Below are positions 42,858 through 52,841 of a stretch of DNA of 64,000 bases, piece by piece. Below the pieces are notes generated by a model. The model ran no database searches, was not told where the DNA came from, and worked only from the letters and a program-made list of their open reading frames with translations. Both the position numbers and the translations under genes were made by a program. How positions within the stretch are numbered: the first letter of the stretch is position 1; every line of letters begins with the position of its first letter. This stretch comes from Dictyostelium discoideum. Lineage: Eukaryota. The stretch is taken from NCBI GenBank assembly GCA_000004695.1, contig CM000153.2, positions 5,184,001 through 5,248,000 of the forward strand, written 5' to 3'.

Positions 42858-42940
42858 TTGCAAGAGGCGAGATTCGAACTCGCGAACCGAATGGATGAGA
42901 TCTTAAGTCACACGGATTTAACCAGACTTTCCTACCCTTG
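42858..42940 (-). tRNA. tRNA-Leu (anticodon UAA), 83 nt with long variable arm
   Basis: Minus-strand sequence GCAAGGG-TA-GGAAAGTCTGGTTAAATCC-G-TGTGA-CTTAAGA-TCTCA-TCCATTCGGTTC-GCGAG-TTCGAAT-CTCGC-CTCTTGC-A. The 7-bp acceptor stem has one G.U pair. T-arm GCGAG/TTCGAAT/CTCGC. Anticodon loop CT-TAA-GA. The ~12-nt variable region is typical of type II Leu tRNAs. A T5 Pol III terminator lies ~7 nt downstream. Confidence 0.8.
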
Positions 42941-43446
42941 CTTTGGATGAATCATAATTTTTATTAGCAAAACTCGTTGGTTTGAATTGAAATAAATGAA
43001 GTTTGTCAAAGCAGAAGAAAATGTTAAAACAGATAAAAGGAAAATGATAAATAAGGTAATGATAACTCAAGTGATGAAAAAATTACTTTAAAAGAGAATG
43101 AAGATTATGTTATCAATCAAGAACAAGACAAAGAAGAAATCATGGTTACTCGAGATGTGGAAAATGAAGATTTAGAATTCATATGACGGTAAAGAAGATG
43201 GAGTTTATTATGAAATGGAAGATGGTGATGAAGAGGATGAGGAATTTAAATAATTATGTAAAAAATTATGTTTTAATTCAAAAATGTGATTCAAAAAAAA
43301 AGCATAATTTCAATTCAATTTGAGTTTAACTTAATTTTTTTTATTTATTGCAATTTTTTTTTTTTTGTTTTTTATATTTTCTATTGTTTTTATATATTTT
43401 AAAATTTAATATTTCAGGAATTTTCCAAAGATGGATAGTAAAAATA

Positions 43447-43876
43447 TTAAACAGTATTGCAAGTCAAAACAGTTGAGCCTTTGTTTGTTAAGGTTAATTC
43501 AAATCCTCCAAAACTACGGTCATATTCGGCAAAGTCATTAAATGTATCCTGTTCAGCTGGTGAGACACCGGCTTGCATTTGAATTGTACCAACACCACCC
43601 CCATCAACTTCACAATTAACAACTGTTGGTTTTGTAGCCCATGTTGGCTAAAAATATATAAAAAAATAAAAAAATAAAAAAAATAATTAATAAAAGGTTA
43701 GGATTTTAAAATGAAATAAATATATTATAAAATTTAATAAAATTTACAATTGATCCTTGAGATTGTCCTGGTTGTAAAGTCCATGGTCTAAATAATAATA
43801 ATAATTTTAGGTTATTTATTAGATACAATATCAATTAAAAATGAAAATTTTTTTTATCTTTATATTACCCAGCCAT
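43447..43876 (-). CDS. small hypothetical protein (~83 aa), three exons, unusually GC-rich codons
   Basis: Exon 1, 43876..43869 (ATGGCTGG|GTAATA). Exon 2, 43787..43748 (PWTLQPGQSQGSI, donor GTAAAT). Exon 3, 43647..43447 (PTWATKPTVVNCEVDGGGVGTIQMQAGVSPAEQDTFNDFAEYDRSFGGFELTLTNKGSTVLTCNTV*). Codons such as GCC/GGC/CCG/GGG stand out against the genome-typical AT-rich choice. Two Cys residues. No family recognised. Confidence 0.5.
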
Positions 43877-44613
43877 TTTTTATTTAATTTTTTAATTTAT
43901 TTAGAAAATTAAGATGTAAGAAAATTATAATTATTTAATTTTTAATTATTTAATAAAAAAAAAAAAAAAAAATTAATTTAAATACTTTTTTTTTTTTGAG
44001 AAAAAAAAAATAATCAAGATTAAAATAAATAATTAAAATTCAAACAATCTTCTTTTTTTATGTGCATTATAAGAAAGGATTATTTTTTATTGTGATTTTG
44101 ATAAGTAAGTTGGTTCTTCTCTTAAAAACAAAAAATAGAAAAGAGGTTTTTTTTTTAATTTTTCTCCACAAAATATTAAAAAAAAAAAAAAAATTTAATT
44201 TTTAACCCAAAACACTTTTCAAATTAGATTTTTTTTTGGTGAATTTGGCAATTAAAATAAAAATAAAAACTGATTGTAAACGTGTTGTTTAAATTGACTT
44301 TTACTCCTCTTTTTTTATGAAAAAAAAAAATCTTTTTTTTTATTAATATTATTAAATAAATAATTCCAATTTTTTATGGGAATTAATTTATTGTGGTTAT
44401 TTTGTAAATATGGTAAAAATCATTTTTATGTTTTTTTTTTTTGTTTTTTTTTTGATTAGGTGTCTCTTAATTATTCAAAAGTTTTTTTTTTTTTTTAAAA
44501 AAAAGGAATTATTTGAAATGATAATTTTTTGTAATAAATATTCACTTAAAAAAAAAGTTTTTTGGACAATCTTTATTATAATATACTAATAAATCCTTGT
44601 TTTTAGGTTTTAG

Positions 44614-44644
<31 letters not shown>

Positions 44645-44730
44645 GTTTAGATTAAAAAATTTCAAAAATAAAGGAATTAAATGTTTTAAAAATTAAATTA
44701 AATTTATTTATTTATTATTTGTTTGTTTTT

Positions 44731-44777
<47 letters not shown>

Positions 44778-45091
44778 TTATTTATTATTTAATGAAATTT
44801 CGTTTATTTATTTTTTTAATGAAATTTTATTTATCTCTATTTCAATGAAATTTCAAACAAAGATATAAACAAATATAAATAAATATATTTTTGTTTATTT
44901 CTTTGTTTGAAATTTCGTTGAATATTATTTTTAAATGGATCTAATTAAATGACTATGTACAAGGCCAAACGGCTGAAAGGGCTAATTGCAAGGTTTTTTT
45001 TAAAAAAAAAGAACTTCATAGGCTTATAACAAGGTTTTCTTATAAACAAAAATTAAAAAAACAAAAAAACCATTAAATTAATGGGGCAGAT

Positions 45092-46801
45092 TGTTGAACA
45101 TTAACACAATAATTTAACATTTATAATATAAAAATAAATATATAATAAGTTGATGTTTTATCGATAATCCTAAAATTTATTATGCATGTTTTTTTATTGC
45201 TGAAAATTTTTACTTTTTATATTTGAGATTAAAAATTATGTTTATGAGTTTTTAAATCGACATTAAAAACTCACCACGTGGCTTTTTCCCACCTAGGTGA
45301 GAAAAGTCTAATTATATAAACATAAATTATTTTAGTTTGTGAGCGAGATTGTATCTAATTTAATATCTTGATAAAACATAATTTTATTGTAACAATTTAA
45401 TTATTACATAATTATATTACAACACGCCACCTTTAGATTTTAATTTTTAAAATATTAAAATCTGATAATAATCTTAAAACATTATGATGATCATTCCATG
45501 TTTTATCACTCCCTCTTTCAACTGGTTTTCAGATTGCACCAATTTATTAAAATTACCAAATTTTTTTTTAACCATAAGAAGTTAAAGATGAAACTGGAAT
45601 CCATGCTTTAGTCTTTGAAATTATTAAATATTCTACCAATAGTTTACCACATTGATTTTCTAAATCTGGATTGTACTATTCATTTAGTGAGAATTAACCA
45701 AACCCATTAGCACACTAATAAACCTTTGGTCCATGGTTGGATCTTTAATGAATTTGACAACAACTTGTTCACGTTTTTAATGGATTTTGGCTTTTTAACA
45801 TTTAACATTAGTTGCTTAATCTGTCAACTTTTCACTTTTTGATTTTAAATTGAGGTTCTGCCAATAACATACTTTAAGTTGATCACCATCACCTTTGAGA
45901 AAATTCACGTTATCACTGAGACATGTTAAGTTAGACGATGGTCTTTGATACTCATCCAATCCAGTAGTTTTTCGGACCACTGATTGATGATTTGAAGTTT
46001 GACTTCCACATCCTTACCATTTACCACTATGACCTGATAATCTGAGGTTCTGATGTGTTCTGCAAGATCTGTCTTCAGCGAGAGCAGTCTCCATACTATT
46101 CATCTCTACCAAATCAGCATCTATAGGGCTGCCACTTACTCAATCTTCACTATGATCCGTTCTCTCAAAAGAATCTTTGTTGATCCCTTTGGTATTGAAC
46201 TATTGGGCTTATGAGACCTACGCTCTATCAACTGAGCCAACACGGCATGTTGATGTTTTTTTTTTTTTTTTTTTTTTAAAAATTTATTTTTATAAAATTA
46301 GTACAAAATAAAAAGGTAATTTACAAGTTATATATTTATTCTTTTAGTTATTTATATTTTTCTAAATCTTTGAGAAGCTACCATGTTGAACATTAACACA
46401 ATAATTTAACATAAATAATATAAAAATAAATAAATAATTAAAATACTCGCCTAAATTTTTGCTCATGTTAGGTTAAGAATCTTTTAATAGAAAAATATAA
46501 TAAAATTAAATAAATAAATATATAAGTTGATGTTTTATCGATAATCCTAAAATTTATTATTTATGTTGTTTTATAGTTGAAAATTTCTACTTTTTATATT
46601 TGAGATTTAAAATTATGTTTATGAGTTTTTCAATCGACATTTAAAACTCACCACGTGACTTTTTCCCACCTAGGTGAGAAAAGTCTAATTATATAAACAT
46701 AAATTATTCTAGTTTGTGAGCGAGATTGTATCTAATTTAATATCTTGATAAAACATAATTTTATTGTAACAATTTAATTATTACATAATTATATTACAAC
46801 A
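45092..46801 (-). mobile_element. candidate degenerate LTR-retrotransposon remnant: two direct LTR-like repeats (TGTTG...CAACA) flanking ~960 bp of non-coding interior
   Basis: Repeat 1 is 45092-45424 and repeat 2 is 46384-46801. They are ~95% identical, and repeat 2 has an ~85-bp insertion. Both begin TGTTGAACATTAACAC and end ATTATATTACAACA (terminal inverted dinucleotide TG..CA). Each contains a CACGTG-centred hairpin (CTCACCACGTGG...CCACCTAGGTGAG). In minus orientation the 5' repeat is followed directly by TGGTAGCTTCTC (primer-binding-site-like: TGG plus complement of a tRNA 3' end). The 3' repeat is preceded by AAAGGTGGCG (polypurine-tract-like). The interior (45425-46383) has no long ORF. 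Confidence 0.5.
46205..46246 (-). pseudogene. tRNA-Met-like 5' half (positions 1-38 only) embedded in the LTR-like element interior
   Basis: Minus-strand GCCGTGT-TG-GCTCAGTTGATAGAGC-G-TAGGT-CTCATAA. This is a perfect acceptor 5' strand, D-arm (GCTC/AGTTGATA/GAGC) and anticodon loop with CAT. Similarity stops exactly after position ~38 (the canonical tRNA intron/cleavage site). No T-arm or 3' acceptor strand follows. A T22 run (plus strand 46256-46277) lies 9 nt from its 5' end. Confidence 0.5.
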
Positions 46802-47259
46802 GCAGATGGAAATTTTATTTTTTTTTATTTTATTTTATTTTATTTAATTTTATTTTTTTTTTATTAAAAAAATGTTTTTGTATTCTTTTTTTGGTAAAAT
46901 CTCAAATTCTCATTTGGAATTATGTATTTTTTCTTTTTTATATTTTTTTTTAAATGTGTATAAAAGGTGTTGATGATTATTTTTTTTATTTTAAAAGTCC
47001 CCGTCATCTATAAAATTTAGAAAGAATGATATCAAATGTAAACTCACCTCAACCTCCCTCACAATTTATTGACGATGGATATTTAGTATTAAGTGAAATA
47101 AACATATGTGATGATTGTTCAAAAAACCAGGAAAATGAAAATGGTAAACACACATTTTATTATATTATAAATACTTTTAAAAATAAATTATTTTTTTTAA
47201 TCTATATCATTTTAATTAATTTCATTTTTATTAATATCATTTTCTTTAATATTATTTAC

Positions 47260-47450
<191 letters not shown>

Positions 47451-47468
47451 TATTATTAAACTATATAA

Positions 47469-48536
47469 AATGAATTTAGAATTAAAAAATATCAAAGAAA
47501 TATTGGATAAACTTACAAAAGGTAATTTTTTATTTATCATTTTTTTTTTTTTTTATTTTTAAAAAATCATATTAATTTAAAATTAACACAATTAATAATA
47601 CATGTAGATTTAAATGCACTTGAAAATAATTTTAATTCTAGATTAAATACACTTGAAAATAATTTTAATTCTAGATTAGATACACTTGAAAATAATTTTA
47701 TTTATTTTAAAAAAGGTATTATTTTACAATTATTATATTTATTTGTTTCTTCTTTATTTATTTATTTATAACTTATTAACTGGATTTATTTTACTGAATA
47801 TTCATTAATAGCAATTGTAGATGAAAAAATAATAATTAGTAAAGTTGGTAAATCTGAATTAATGTTATTGGGATTGGACAATAATTTTAAAATCAAAAAA
47901 ATTAATCAGCCATCAATTTCCCAACAACAACTTATGGAATTAAAATCATTTAATGTATTTGAATGGAAAGAAAATGAAAAATACTATGAATCCACAATGG
48001 ATATCAATAATTATTTTCATTATATCATTGATCAAGAAACTGAAGATATGGAAAATATGTACTTGTCAAATATTTCAAATCAACATACTGCTTTAAAATG
48101 CCAAGTTGGTGATATAGAATTGTCTGGTTCAGGAGATTATTTATTAGTAATTAATGGAAAAGGAAATCCTGAAAAAAGATTTAAATTGGATTTAGATTAT
48201 GTTAAAAATCCTTCAAATTTCGAGTTTGATAACGTTTATCTTGGTTTTGAAATTAAATCAACATCTACAATTAATGAATTTCAAGGAATTGCCGAATTAA
48301 TTGCAATTACAAGAAAATCAAACGGTTTGCACCCAATTCTCCACATTTCAACAAATTTTAATGATAATTATATATTTTCATTTTGGGATATTGAAGGTAA
48401 TGTAAATTGGGTAAAAATCGAAAGAAAATCGGCAATTAATTTAATTCAAAGTTTTGTTTTAAAATCAAAAGAATTTCCAAAAGAAAATTTTTACAATATC
48501 AATGGTATTAATATGTATTCTAAATCATTACAATAA
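47469..48536 (+). CDS. hypothetical protein with N-terminal 12-aa tandem repeats (LENNFNSRLxT; coiled-coil-like) and a C-terminal globular domain
   Basis: Exon 1, 47469..~47521 (MNLELKNIKEILDKLTKG, donor GTAATT). Exon 2, ~47604..~47713 (DLNALENNFNSRLNTLENNFNSRLDTLENNFIYFKKG; a 36-nt unit repeated twice). Exon 3, ~47812..48536 (AIVDEKIIISKVGKSELMLLGLDNNFKIKK...ORF 47862..48536). A possible extra 5' exon is 47026..~47145 (MISNVNSPQPPSQFIDDGYLVLSEINICDDCSKNQENENG|GTAAAC), unresolved. Confidence 0.55.
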
Positions 48537-48692
48537 TGTTATTTTATTGTATTTTTTTTATATATCTCAAGAATAATAATTTTCCCAAATGATTTAAGTA
48601 AAAAAATATTAATTAAAAAAAAACAACAATAAAACCTTTTGTTTCTCTTTGATTTTATTTAATTGTTTTAATAAACAAAAAAATAAAATTAG

Positions 48693-48725
<33 letters not shown>

Positions 48726-48784
48726 AATCTAAAATGGCATTTACAACAAAAATAATTTATTTTTATTAATTTTTTTTTTTATTC

Positions 48785-51065
48785 TTAATTATTATTATTA
48801 AAATAAATTTGGAATTTACTACCAAAAGTTAAATAAATTGGGTCCAATGTATTTAAAATAATATTATCATATTCGGTTGATAATAAAGTTAAATAAACAG
48901 ATGGATTAAATGTTAACATTTCAAAAGTGATAGTAGTTTGATTCCAACCAACATTGAATGTTGATCCTATATAATTCATTGATCTAATTTTAAGACTTGT
49001 TGTACCTTCTGGTAATTGAGGATAGAAATCCAAATTGCCTTGATGAATTCTAACTCCACCATAACCAAACATAAGACCTTGAAGGAATCCACCTAAAATA
49101 TATGAATATATATTAGTTTATGTTATAATTTTTATACTATAGTATTTACATTTATTACTTACCCATTCCTGTAGCAAAGTTAACAGCTCCACCAGTTGGA
49201 GTTTCAGTCCATACTAAGAATGGAGAGTTATTACAATTATTATAAGAACGAAACCATTGTTTAGTTGCATTTTCAAGACTTTCCAATTCTAACCATGCAA
49301 CGGTATGCATTGAATAAGTCATTGCAGGACCACTATTTGTTGTAACTGCTTCATAATAAATTAAATCATTCTTTCTAGCTTCTTTACTCATATTATACAT
49401 TAAAGGGAAACCTAATAAAACCACATCAGCTTGTTTGATAGTTTCACCATTATAACCTTGATACTCTGGATGCCATTGATTAACCTCATCAAATAAAATC
49501 ACTAAACCATTTGCAATTGATGACCAATGTTCAAATGGAATATTCTCTGTATCATTAATCAATGTTGCTACCTCAATTACCCATTCAAATGTCATTTTAA
49601 CAGCAACATTTGTATAAACTGAATTATTAACACCAACTGCATATTCATCTGGTGGAATAATAGTATTGATAGAATATTGTTGATTTAATTGATCATATTC
49701 AACTCTACTTGCCCAAAATTCTGCAATACCTTTAAGTGCTTTATAACCAAAATCAATTAACCAATCTAAATCACCTGTTAAATAATAATATTGTCTAATT
49801 GCTAATGCTATATCTGCTGTTATATGTTGTTCTAAAATACCCTATATAAATTTATAATTTATAATTAATATAAATTTATAAAATTTTAAATATAATATAT
49901 ATATATTACTTACAGTTGGAGCAAAAGTTGGACAAACTTCTATTCCAGTGAAAGCACTCTCCCATGGAAACATAAAACCAGTATAATTATTTGATTTATA
50001 ACTTAAAGCTTTTTCATGAGCACCTGGTAAATTATTGATACGATATTGTAAAAGACAATCTCTTACAAGTTTTGGATTTAATAAAAGTATTGGTGGAAGC
50101 ATCCAAGTTTCAGTATCCCAAAATGAATGACCATTATAACCATCAGATGCTAAACCACCTGGTGACATACCATATGACCAATCATCTCTAATTGATGAAA
50201 ATAAATAATACAATGAGGAATTTACAACTTGTTGTAAATGTGAATCTCCACCAACTTCAATACCAGATATCCAAATTTTATTCCATTCATCTAAATGACT
50301 CTTGATCAATTGATCAGCTAAAAGAAATGTTGTTTTATAAATATCTAAACTACCTTCGATATAATCATTTGTTTCAATATTTGTTAAAAATGAGGTGACA
50401 TAATGATGTTTCTTTTTCTCACCACTTTTAATTGTAATTGATTGAGGTATGGTTGTAGTTGTGACGGCCACTGATGTCATAAAATTAACTTCTGGCACTT
50501 TAATAGTAAGATTATACAATTGATAATCATTACCTGTGAATTGAGTATTTGTTAAATTTAAAATATTGAAATCAACATTTGCTGTAAGATTAATACCAAC
50601 AACACTCAATTGTAATGTGACATCTGTTTCAATATTACTATTATCAACTTCAATCTCTTGTACTAAAATATTTCTAATTTTTTGATGAGCATAAAAAATT
50701 TGTTTAACAATTGTACCTGGTGATGATGGAATTGAATAAACTCTAGTATAGGTTGCATTCTCTATATCTAAACCTGCATATTGAAATTGAGCATTACTGA
50801 TTTCAATATTTTGAAAATTTGGTATACCTGCTCTATGAGATGGTAAATTATTTGCATCTCCTAAATTTATAGCTGGTCCATTATACACACCACCAACATA
50901 TATTGATTCACCACCAATTACAAATGCAACATATCCATTACCAACATTTGTCATCAAATAATTAGTTGGTTCTTGTTCACCATTTGAAATTGATAATAAA
51001 TTACCTGCTTCAACTCTTTCATTCCACCATTGTGGTGGTTGTAAATATTCTTGTGAATTAATAAT
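48785..51065 (-). CDS. glycoside hydrolase family 65 protein (ATHL1/PGGHG-like; acid-trehalase-like) - N-terminal exon(s) unresolved
   Basis: Exons: ~51065..49904 (QIINSQEYLQPPQWWNERVEAGNLLSISNGEQEPTNYLMTNVGNGYVAF...GMSPGGLASDGYNGHSFWDTETWMLPPILLL...FMFPWESAFTGIEVCPTFAPT); ~49853..49163 (GILEQHITADIALAIRQYYYLTGD...WFRSYNNCNNSPFLVWTETPTGGAVNFATGMG); ~49094..48785 (GFLQGLMFGYGGVRIHQGNLDFYP...stop). Donors GTAAGT twice. Motifs are typical of the GH65 catalytic (alpha/alpha)6 barrel. The exon upstream of the A58 run at 51062-51120 was not identified. Confidence 0.8.
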
Positions 51066-51068
51066 CTG

Positions 51069-51123
<55 letters not shown>

Positions 51124-51939
51124 ATTAGTATTTGAAACTAAATTTTATTTTTTATCTTTCACCTAAAAAAAAAAAAAAGCATACAGATATTAAAACAATT
51201 ATAATAAATAATTTAATAATAATATTATTTTCATTTTATTAATAACCGATTATTGGTAACCAATAAAAAAAAAAAAAAAAATAAAATCTTTTTAACAACT
51301 TTTTTTGATTGGTTTTTTTTTTTTTTCAACCAGGAAAAAAAAAAAAAAATAAAATAAAATAAAAATAAATTAAAATTAAGATAATGGAATTTGGGATTTT
51401 ATAAAAAATTTAAAAAAAATATTTATTCGTAAATGGTATTTTTTGGGCGAAATCAAAATTATCCTAACACCAATACCATTGCTATTATTACTATTTTTTT
51501 TTTTTTTTTAATAATTATTAAATGGTGTTATTATTACAAGTGGACTTTTACCAATTAAAATAAAAAAGAGAAAAAAAACAAAAAAAAAAAAAATAAGAAA
51601 ATAAAAAAAAAAAATTTAATTTGATATTATTATACATTTAGATATGATATAATCAAAACAATGATTTGATTATATGATATATTTGTTATTTTGCTTTTAT
51701 TATAATAAATAATAATCACTTTTTAAAGAAAAAAAATAAATAAAAAAAATAAAAAAAAAGAGTGATATAATTTTGGTAAAGGTGTAGTGTGCTATTTACT
51801 GTGGTTGTTGTTGTTGTTGTTGTTGTTGTTATTGAGTAGTTTGATTTGTGAAGGGGTATGTGTGTATAATGTATAAAGTTGGTTTCTTTAAAATATTATT
51901 TCATTTTTTATATGGATTTTATGTGAGTGTGTATAGATA

Positions 51940-52841
51940 AATATTTAAGCGGTTGAATTATTATTACCACCTCTACCACCTCTTGAACTACCTCTAAAAT
52001 CTCCTCTACCACCTCTTGAACTTCCTCTATATTCACCTCTACCTCTACCTGCTGGTGATGAGTCGCCACCACCACTATTATTATTACCACCACCTCTACC
52101 ACCTCTATAACTATTATCACCTCTACCTCTACCAGATGCATCACCTCTACCTCTACCAGCGAAACCATCACCTCTACCTCTACCTCTATTACTATCATTT
52201 CTTTGTTGATATGTAGTTCTTAAAGTTTGTTCTTCTTCTGCTACTAAATCTATAATCTATTCAAACATTATAAAAAAGTTAGTAAATAATCATCCCCACA
52301 TAATAATTATTATTATATATTATTGATTGATTTTGTTCAATATTGAACAAGTTATGTACATACTTCATCAGGAACCGATATGTATTTAATTGTATTTCCT
52401 CTAATATAACATGATTGAATTTTCCAAAATTTATCAGAGTCTTTTGAGGTTCTAATAACATTTTTTAAATTTATGTTCATCCAATTATCGCAATTTACTA
52501 AAAGTCCATTATATGTTTCGCCATTCTTAAGTTCCACCATCTGAATAAAAAAAGTAATAATAAATTAATAAATAATTTAAAATGTTAGTAATGATGATGT
52601 GGCAGTGGTGGTAGTGGTGACAATATTTATATGATTTGGTTTTTATTATTATATAAAGAGAGTAGTTATGATGTGTTAACACTTACAATTTGGTGACCTT
52701 GACCTGTTCTTAATAATGAAAGTGGTAACTAATATAAATAATAATAAAAAATTAGTATTACAATATTGTAAAATTTTTAAAAAAAAATTAATAGTATATA
52801 TATATATATATATTTAAATGAATGAATTAACAAAATCGAAT
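51940..52841 (-). CDS. lsm4: U6 snRNA-associated Sm-like protein LSm4 with RG-rich C-terminal tail; start codon split by an intron
   Basis: Exon 1 is ATG alone (plus 52839-52841) followed by donor GTAAAT. Exon 2, 52728..52687 ([14 protein letters not shown], donor GTAAGT). Exon 3, 52540..52364 ([59 protein letters not shown], the Sm fold, donor GTATGT). Exon 4, ~52256..51940 ([10 protein letters not shown]...[24 protein letters not shown]...GGRGG...stop). Aligns with human LSM4 [82 protein letters not shown]. Confidence 0.85.

Follow-up and report, generated by a model that had tools for sequence, protein, structure and literature searches.

A probable non-autonomous LTR retrotransposon copy with a tRNA-Met-like internal fragment on chromosome 4 of Dictyostelium discoideum AX4

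We analysed a 64-kb window of Dictyostelium discoideum AX4 chromosome 4, with a GC content of ~22%, and all coordinates below refer to this whole stretch of DNA unless another assembly or locus is named. On its minus strand, positions 45092–46801 make up one copy of a long terminal repeat (LTR) retroelement, 1,710 bp in total, which lies 225 bp upstream of the start codon of the gene DDB_G0287051, with its 5′ LTR adjoining that gene and pointing away from it. The copy is bounded by two direct repeats with TGTTG...CAACA termini, a 3′ LTR of 333 bp (45092–45424, minus strand) and a 5′ LTR of 418 bp (46384–46801, minus strand). Pairwise alignment of the two shows 14 mismatches over 333 aligned positions, equivalent to 95.8% identity and a Kimura two-parameter (K2P) distance of 0.043, plus one 85-bp indel, by which the 3′ LTR is the shorter. 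An initial annotation, made from the sequence letters, had described direct repeats of ~330 and ~420 bp with 95% identity and these same termini, and our alignment agrees with it, apart from placing the inner end of the left repeat 2 bp further in. It had also noted flanks resembling a primer-binding site (PBS) and a polypurine tract (PPT) in minus orientation, and both are where it placed them: the 12-nt PBS TGGTAGCTTCTC (46372–46383, minus strand) starts with TGG at the first base past the 5′ LTR, and the PPT-like sequence AAAGGTGGCG (45425–45434, minus strand) directly abuts the 3′ LTR.

The outer ends of the element, and only these, carry a perfect 6-bp target-site duplication (TSD), GCAGAT, with a left copy at 45086–45091 and a right copy at 46802–46807; the chance of such a match is ~8 × 10⁻⁵ from base composition. 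A duplication immediately outside 45092 and 46801 was what had been proposed as a check on the retroelement, and it is present on both sides. The state of the site without the element could be read from two assemblies of the D. discoideum complex that are labelled D. discoideum, GCA_054859355.1 (L001) and GCA_054859385.1 (L002), in which we reached the orthologous regions via the neighbouring gene. In both, the empty site AATTAATGGGGTAGATGGAAATTTT has a single GTAGAT between the same flanks as in AX4, and the right TSD copy was placed by aligning the junction with these sites. In both regions the sequence, ...AAATTAATGGGGTAGATGGAAATTTT..., consists of the left flank as in AX4, the hexamer once with one single-nucleotide polymorphism, and the right flank as in AX4, with 0 of the 1,710 bp present. 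The TSD and the empty sites in two assemblies together prove an insertion, and the locus is an LTR-type retroelement, as annotated, rather than a segmental duplication lacking a TSD. Flanking DNA in L001 and L002 is 79–95% identical to that of AX4, a divergence wider than the 4.3% between the LTRs, so that an insertion in the AX4 lineage after its split from the L001 and L002 lineages would be coherent with both figures.

The 85-bp segment unique to the 5′ LTR (46437–46521, minus strand) was located by MAFFT and by a double BLAST alignment of LTR positions 31–55, with boundaries that are ambiguous by a few nucleotides. Because it is edged by AATAAATAAATA-type direct repeats, the most likely origin of the gap is a slippage event that removed these 85 bp from what is now the 333-bp repeat, and the ancestral LTR would then have been ~418 bp long, probably the length still seen in the 5′ LTR. 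Within the 5′ LTR, a TATA-like TTTATATAATTAG (46698–46686) is followed by two short palindromes capable of forming hairpins, the whole group spanning 46698–46640, and these might have acted as promoter elements.

Between the LTRs lies an interior of 959 bp (45425–46383). The list of open reading frames (ORFs) has none longer than 54 amino acids in it, and every frame is interrupted by at least 11 stop codons; in a 769-bp core of this interior, stops are as many, and the longest open stretch (65 codons) is as long, as in shuffled sequence. Translated in six frames, the interior matched no Pfam family and had no homologue in a collection of 5.8 billion proteins, which includes several annotated Dictyostelium proteomes together with their transposon ORFs, and in these Pfam and protein searches no remnant of gag, protease, reverse transcriptase, RNase H or integrase was found in any frame. 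The interior core gave no Rfam match, and no match in five loci that are rich in transposable elements or orthologous to the window, while exact-protein look-ups of ORFs from the window, among them the 54-amino-acid ORF of the interior and P0001, an AX4 protein, found no record. The description of an interior of ~960 bp without a gag or pol ORF is therefore upheld in full, and the gag and pol coding capacity of an autonomous Ty3/gypsy element is absent. An origin of the interior from nuclear mitochondrial DNA (NUMT) or ribosomal DNA was considered and rejected, as neither a protein match nor an Rfam match was found. What the stop pattern and the Pfam, protein and Rfam searches leave at 45435–46190 (minus strand) is an ORF-less internal core with a GC content of ~32%.

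The divergence of the LTRs bears on when coding capacity was lost. From it, ~2% of interior sites would be expected to have changed since insertion, so that at least 11 stops per frame would not reflect recent decay of a gag-pol reading frame; the LTRs differ by 4.3%, yet every interior frame looks random, which argues that the copy lacked gag and pol when it integrated. Most likely, then, the copy was already without these genes at integration and was mobilised in trans, a conclusion that assumes equal substitution rates in the interior and the LTRs and no large later deletions.

The PBS TGGTAGCTTCTC would be complementary to a tRNA 3′ end of the form ...GAGAAGCUACCA, and its TGGTA start implies a tRNA with A73 and U72. 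In the cytoplasmic tRNAs of eukaryotes, an A1:U72 pair marks out initiator tRNA-Met, which serves as primer for Ty1, Ty3, copia and the terminal-repeat retrotransposons in miniature (TRIMs) of plants. Judged by this U72/A73 signature, the primer was probably initiator tRNA-Met. A metagenome scan for the putative initiator tRNA 3′ end gave 0 matches, and a literature search with the PBS sequence returned unrelated primers only.

We compared the element with the LTR elements described in D. discoideum, namely Skipper-1, Skipper-2 (formerly DGLT-P) and DGLT-A (PMC5006619, PMC5633606). DGLT-A, whose LTRs were formerly known as H3R, has an LTR of 265 bp, a gag-pol ORF and a PBS, TGGCGACATCGTCTTTC, that starts 2 bp past the LTR, and it inserts 13–33 bp upstream of tRNA genes; Skipper-1 has an LTR of 390 bp and forms centromeric clusters, and Skipper-2 has an LTR of 208 bp and inserts 8–23 bp downstream of tRNA genes (PMC5006619). 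Most Skipper elements, those of D. discoideum included, have a polypyrimidine tract in place of a PBS, and the D. discoideum ones have chromodomain integrases (PMC5006619). Our element shares with DGLT-A the host, the LTR organisation, a TGG-type PBS and a PPT beside the right LTR, but it differs in its 418-bp LTR, in its PBS TGGTAGCTTCTC at 0 bp from the LTR, in having no ORF and in lying 2,151 bp from the nearest tRNA gene. Neither the PBS and LTR length of DGLT-A nor its position 13–33 bp upstream of a tRNA gene is found here, and its PBS TGGCGACATCGTCTTTC is absent from the window even with up to three mismatches allowed, as it was also not found in the comparison locus L003. With Skipper-1 and Skipper-2, which are LTR elements of the Ty3/gypsy type, it has the host in common, but its canonical TGG PBS, where Skipper has a polypyrimidine tract, and its 418-bp LTR set it apart, as does its location upstream of, and far from, a tRNA-Leu gene.

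For comparison at the level of sequence, we located transposon copies with the integrase and RNase H blocks from the PMC5006619 supplement, which were available as optical character recognition (OCR) text, and took three transposon-rich loci (L003–L005); together with L001 and L002, these five loci hold DIRS-1, Skipper-like and DGLT-A-like copies. The DGLT-A-like copy at L003 10001–12205 shows 69% identity to the RNase H block published for D. discoideum DGLT-A. It is located just upstream of tRNA-Pro(UGG) and has the PPT AGAGAGGGGG and an LTR, beginning TGTGATGATTCACC, that is unrelated to the LTR under study. This copy shows the canonical DGLT-A arrangement in another strain. The Skipper-2-like copy in L005 ends in AAGAAAGGGGGGAAGG, followed by an LTR of ~190 bp (TGTAAAAT...TTACA), likewise unrelated, which lies 5 bp from the 3′ end of tRNA-Leu(AAG). 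In both copies the PPT has the same position as in our element. The Skipper-like integrase and RNase H proteins of other strains at L005 10001–11940 and L004 10001–11782 (P0069, P0013, P0010) are 47–57% identical to the D. discoideum Skipper-2 blocks and 35–50% to those of Skipper-1, and the L005 copy may represent a further Skipper lineage that targets the downstream side of tRNA genes, as far as reference blocks taken from OCR text allow.

Searches with the LTR, by BLAST and by a sequence-only covariance model, gave nothing significant in the window or in the five Dictyostelium loci, with one exception, a 14-bit match (E ~0.003–0.008) between the LTR and the part of the Skipper-1 integrase that codes for the GPY/F region. 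This match pairs window positions 46706–46798 (LTR positions 4–96, minus strand) with L003 6436–6527 and L005 943–1019 and includes AATCTC..CTCACAAACT.GAAT; it is probably due to chance, but could be old homology. A metagenome scan with the LTR core gave 0 matches. On the evidence available, the element belongs to none of the three described D. discoideum LTR families, and it may come from an undescribed one.

The organisation of the element is that of an LTR retrotransposon, with TG...CA direct repeats, a PPT beside the 3′ LTR, and a TSD together with an unoccupied site, and the combination of LTRs, PBS and PPT with a non-coding interior is that of a TRIM. It resembles TRIMs, which occur in plants and also in animals, in its TG...CA LTRs, its PBS of the TGGTA (initiator-Met) type, its PPT, its non-coding interior, its TSD and its proposed mobilisation in trans. 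Classical TRIMs are shorter than 1 kb and have LTRs of 100–250 bp, whereas a broad, Wicker-type definition takes in non-autonomous elements of up to, but less than, 4 kb. With 1,710 bp, LTRs of 333 and 418 bp and an interior of 959 bp, our element is beyond miniature size and fits only the broad definition; it also differs from TRIMs in a TSD of 6 bp rather than 5 bp, in its amoebozoan host and in being known from one copy, as no second copy was found in the window or in the five loci. In the literature searched, we found no report of a TRIM in Dictyostelium, and searches for surveys of new transposable elements likewise returned nothing relevant.

We consider it probable that the locus is one old, dead, non-autonomous (TRIM-like) LTR retrotransposon copy. 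Such a helper-dependent element would have been transcribed from its own 5′ LTR, and its RNA would have been packaged by the Gag and other proteins of an autonomous LTR retrotransposon, presumably one of the Ty3/gypsy type. Reverse transcription would have started from a tRNA, probably initiator tRNA-Met, annealed at the PBS, with the plus strand primed at the PPT, and the integrase of the helper would have inserted the copy with a 6-bp staggered cut. Several points weigh against this reading. The PPT AAAGGTGGCG is weak, with purines at 8 of its 10 positions, and a 6-bp TSD is unusual for Ty3/gypsy elements. A tRNA matching the PBS was not found in any sequence reached, and initiator tRNA-Met is proposed from the signature described above. 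The element is set apart from the Skipper-2 of AX4 by published LTR length and PBS type, not by sequence; it is known here from one copy, and it may already have a name in Repbase or dictyBase. Finally, large deletions after insertion that spared only the untranslated parts are possible.

This last point is the basis of a different history, in which a full-length autonomous element inserted at the site and later lost gag-pol, so that only its leader and 3′ untranslated sequence remained, perhaps with patches of other DNA. The LTRs, PBS, PPT and TSD fit such a deletion derivative equally well, the 3′ LTR of the same copy has suffered the 85-bp slippage deletion, and in AX4 every copy of DGLT-A and of Skipper-2 is reported to be degenerate (PMC5006619). 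We nevertheless think this history unlikely, given that residues of gag, protease, reverse transcriptase, RNase H and integrase were not found in any frame and that the ~770-bp core resembles random non-coding sequence. One clean deletion would moreover have to excise the entire ORF exactly, and the interior contains a tRNA-gene fragment, which no dictyostelid LTR element described so far has.

This fragment lies close to the PBS end of the interior. On the minus strand, an AT-rich leader (46278–46371), recognised from its sequence and composition, runs from the PBS to an A22 run (46256–46277; T22 on the plus strand), and the GC content across 46251–46383 is only ~13.5%. A 9-nt spacer, CATCAACAT (46247–46255), separates the A run, of a kind ordinary for this genome, from a piece resembling tRNA-Met(CAU) (46204–46246), giving the order A22-CATCAACAT-GCCGTGTTGGCTCAG; the T22/A22 run, annotated as next to the tRNA-like block, is 9 nt from its start. 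The block itself reads GCCGTGTTGGCTCAGTTGATAGAGCGTAGGTCTCATAAGCCCA from 46246 to 46204. It is sense-oriented, 137 nt downstream from the 5′ LTR, and covers nt 1–43 of a tRNA, which take in the 5′ strand of the acceptor, the D arm and a complete anticodon arm whose anticodon is CAT and whose stem has one mismatched pair; the 5′ strand of the T stem and the 3′ end are missing. The Rfam tRNA model recognised it only as a 3′-truncated match over model positions 1–42, which scored 20.2 bits (E 0.012 when 47 nt were searched) where the gathering score is 29. ARAGORN made no call, and the block does not form the full cloverleaf of a tRNA gene. No sequence complementary to the acceptor strand follows it, and no 3′ half of a tRNA-Met-like gene was found in the 64-kb window.

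Beginning 3 nt past the tRNA-like piece, a B-box-like motif, GTTCAATACC (46191–46200, minus strand), fits the consensus GTTCRANNC; the motif scan gave this one match in the element and six in the whole window, counting both strands. The A-box TGGCTCAGTTG and this B-box share the same orientation, with starts 39 nt apart, and since this is ~5 nt closer than in a tRNA, the spacing points to the loss of the 5′ strand of the T stem. By its sequence, we identify the block as a truncated tRNA-Met(CAU) pseudogene piece, made of nt 1–43 and a B-box remnant. It had been annotated as a perfect tRNA-Met 5′ half that ends at nt ~38: a block with a CAT anticodon is indeed present, but it is not a clean half, as it scores below threshold, reaches nt 43 rather than nt 38 and retains a B-box remnant. 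As a separate observation, the 8-mer TCAACATG occurs both at the LTR/PBS junction (46379–46386) and directly 5′ of the tRNA-like piece (46247–46254), which may be a coincidence, with a rough chance of ~0.1, or a trace of the way in which the internal segment was joined.

Within our proposal of a non-autonomous, TRIM-like copy, the tRNA-Met-like piece and the 31 nt upstream of it (the A22 run and the 9-nt spacer) would most likely be cellular sequence captured by an ancestor of the element, with no role in priming. One conceivable route is the transduction of a former target site: the ancestor would have resided upstream of a tRNA-Met gene, and read-through followed by recombination, as in transducing retroviruses, would have brought the piece into the element. 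The 31 nt upstream of the piece fall within the 13–33-bp landing window of DGLT-type elements, so that an ancestor beside a tRNA-Met gene could have captured it in this way. Alternatively, reverse transcriptase might have switched template from the 5′ end of a pre-tRNA, with its 9-nt leader, onto an A tract, and both routes fit the data. Transducing retroelements such as the acute transforming retroviruses and maize Bs1 offer a parallel in that they, too, have cellular sequence between leader and PPT, intact LTRs and a dependence on a helper, but differ in what was captured, which here would be a non-coding tRNA-gene fragment together with other DNA; its source locus was not found.

A more active part for the tRNA-like module, in which its A-box and B-box form a Pol III promoter kept by the family and either transcribed by Pol III or bound by TFIIIC as a landing pad for tRNA-targeting retrotransposons, strikes us as very unlikely. 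There is precedent in the Cassandra TRIMs of plants, which carry a 5S Pol III unit, although the module considered here is tRNA-derived, truncated and located in the internal domain instead of the LTRs. The A-box TGGCTCAGTTG and B-box GTTCAATACC are co-oriented at a distance of 39 nt, a T4 stretch occurs within ~30 nt after them, and B boxes are sufficient for the targeting of TRE5-A (PMC5633606). Set against this, the module is known from a single copy, tRNA detectors fail on it, it has no T stem or 3′ acceptor strand and carries a mismatch in the anticodon stem, and we saw neither a TRE nor a DGLT-A insertion where the canonical spacing from it would place one.

The initial annotation had read the same arrangement as a possible composite, produced either by the nested insertion of a poly-A (TRE-type) retroelement next to a tRNA half inside the LTR element or by priming from a tRNA-Met 5′ half, in the manner of copia. 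The A22 run does lie 9 nt upstream of the tRNA-Met-like 5′ part, and Drosophila copia is primed by a fragment of initiator tRNA-Met, but we regard a composite of either kind as highly improbable. The window contains 38 runs of A or T of at least 20 nt, one per ~1.7 kb, and the A22 run is for this reason not informative. TRE5-A, moreover, inserts ~47 bp upstream of tRNA genes and always turns its 5′ end rather than its tail toward the gene (PMC5391098), and TRE3 integrates downstream of tRNA genes (PMC5006619), whereas here it is the tail side of the A run that faces the tRNA-like piece, at a distance of 9 nt; the 94 nt from the PBS to the A run consist of plain AT-rich DNA, and similarity to TRE proteins was not found anywhere in the interior. 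Priming by a tRNA half fares no better, as the sense-oriented piece cannot anneal to tRNA-Met. It is 137 nt away from the LTR and unconnected with the canonical PBS at the LTR border, which would pair with the 3′ CCA end of a tRNA. Lastly, a segmental duplication at the locus, or a pair of independent solo LTRs around ordinary genomic DNA, has nothing in its favour beyond the presence of two repeats and retains next to no probability, excluded as it is by the precise joining of the outer flanks around a single 6-bp target in L001 and L002, by the identical 6-bp duplication at the outer ends only, and by the PBS and PPT at the inner borders.

The position of the element relative to tRNA genes was examined in the same window. 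tRNA-Leu(UAA) at 42859–42941 (minus strand) is the only tRNA gene in the 64 kb, and Rfam, run on the region and on the window as a whole, yielded this gene and sub-threshold hairpin matches only. It is the genuine tRNA-Leu gene that had been placed ~2 kb away, and the element lies 2,151 bp upstream of it. The D. discoideum genome comprises ~34 Mb. With 418 tRNA genes in this genome (PMC5633606), ~5% of random sites are within 2,151 bp of such a gene. Published targeting windows are 13–33 bp for DGLT-A, 8–23 bp for Skipper-2, ~47 bp for TRE5 and ~100 bp for TRE3 (PMC5006619, PMC5911963, PMC5391098). A distance of 2,151 bp against tens of base pairs, or a few hundred at most, does not support the annotated habit of tRNA-proximal integration. 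Of the earlier picture of a degenerate retroelement near a tRNA gene, the degenerate LTR retroelement is borne out by the TSD and the empty sites, while priming by a tRNA half, a nested poly-A element and targeting to a tRNA gene are not.

D. discoideum is the reference amoebozoan, its described LTR retrotransposons are centromeric or targeted to tRNA genes, and no primer tRNA has been identified for DGLT-A. A helper-dependent element that has a canonical PBS, is not targeted to tRNA genes and inserted at a datable time would extend this catalogue by one family and would imply a helper whose integrase has a 6-bp footprint. A further-reaching proposal, that the copy represents an undescribed fourth D. 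discoideum LTR family that is helper-dependent, TRIM-like and primed by initiator tRNA-Met, and whose interior carries a tRNA-Met-derived A-box/B-box unit, is in our estimate quite unlikely. Were it true, and were the unit kept by the family as Cassandra keeps its 5S unit, Pol III and TFIIIC sites would have been moved around the genome. Since Pol III genes are the targets of TRE5, TRE3, DGLT-A and Skipper-2 alike, such mobile sites would seed new landing pads for other retrotransposons. The internal tRNA-gene fragment may be a fossil left by transduction from what was once a target site at a tRNA gene. If the element proves to be a named repeat or the product of a one-off deletion, it would be ordinary.

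Next to the element, the ORF at 47862–48536 matches DDB_G0287051 of D. discoideum AX4 with 100% identity. The region of this gene also contains a long (ATT)n microsatellite and a 33-bp tandem repeat in three copies, at 47255–47440 and 47610–47708, and L002 lacks ~130 bp that include the start-codon region of the AX4 gene. L001 (5850–7330) and L002 (6700–7420) carry an extra, paralogous DDB_G0287051 promoter and gene, corresponding to window positions 46780–48315 and placed between tRNA-Leu(UAA) and the remainder of the region, where AX4 has one copy; the paralogous target site in these assemblies, GGGGTGGATGGAAAT, is also unoccupied. Over window positions 43248–52000 as a whole, L001 and L002 remain at 79–95% identity to AX4, and their DDB_G0287051 protein is 90% identical. 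This divergence is far above what is expected within a species, and the two assemblies, although labelled D. discoideum, may come from cryptic species. On the other side of the element, 170 bp left of the insertion site, an inverted repeat at 44838–44925 forms a near-perfect hairpin of 88 nt, which has sub-threshold matches to miRNA families in Rfam only (38.5 bits against a gathering score of 100) and is kept at the orthologous place in L001 (~9391–9486) and L002 (~8953–9050).

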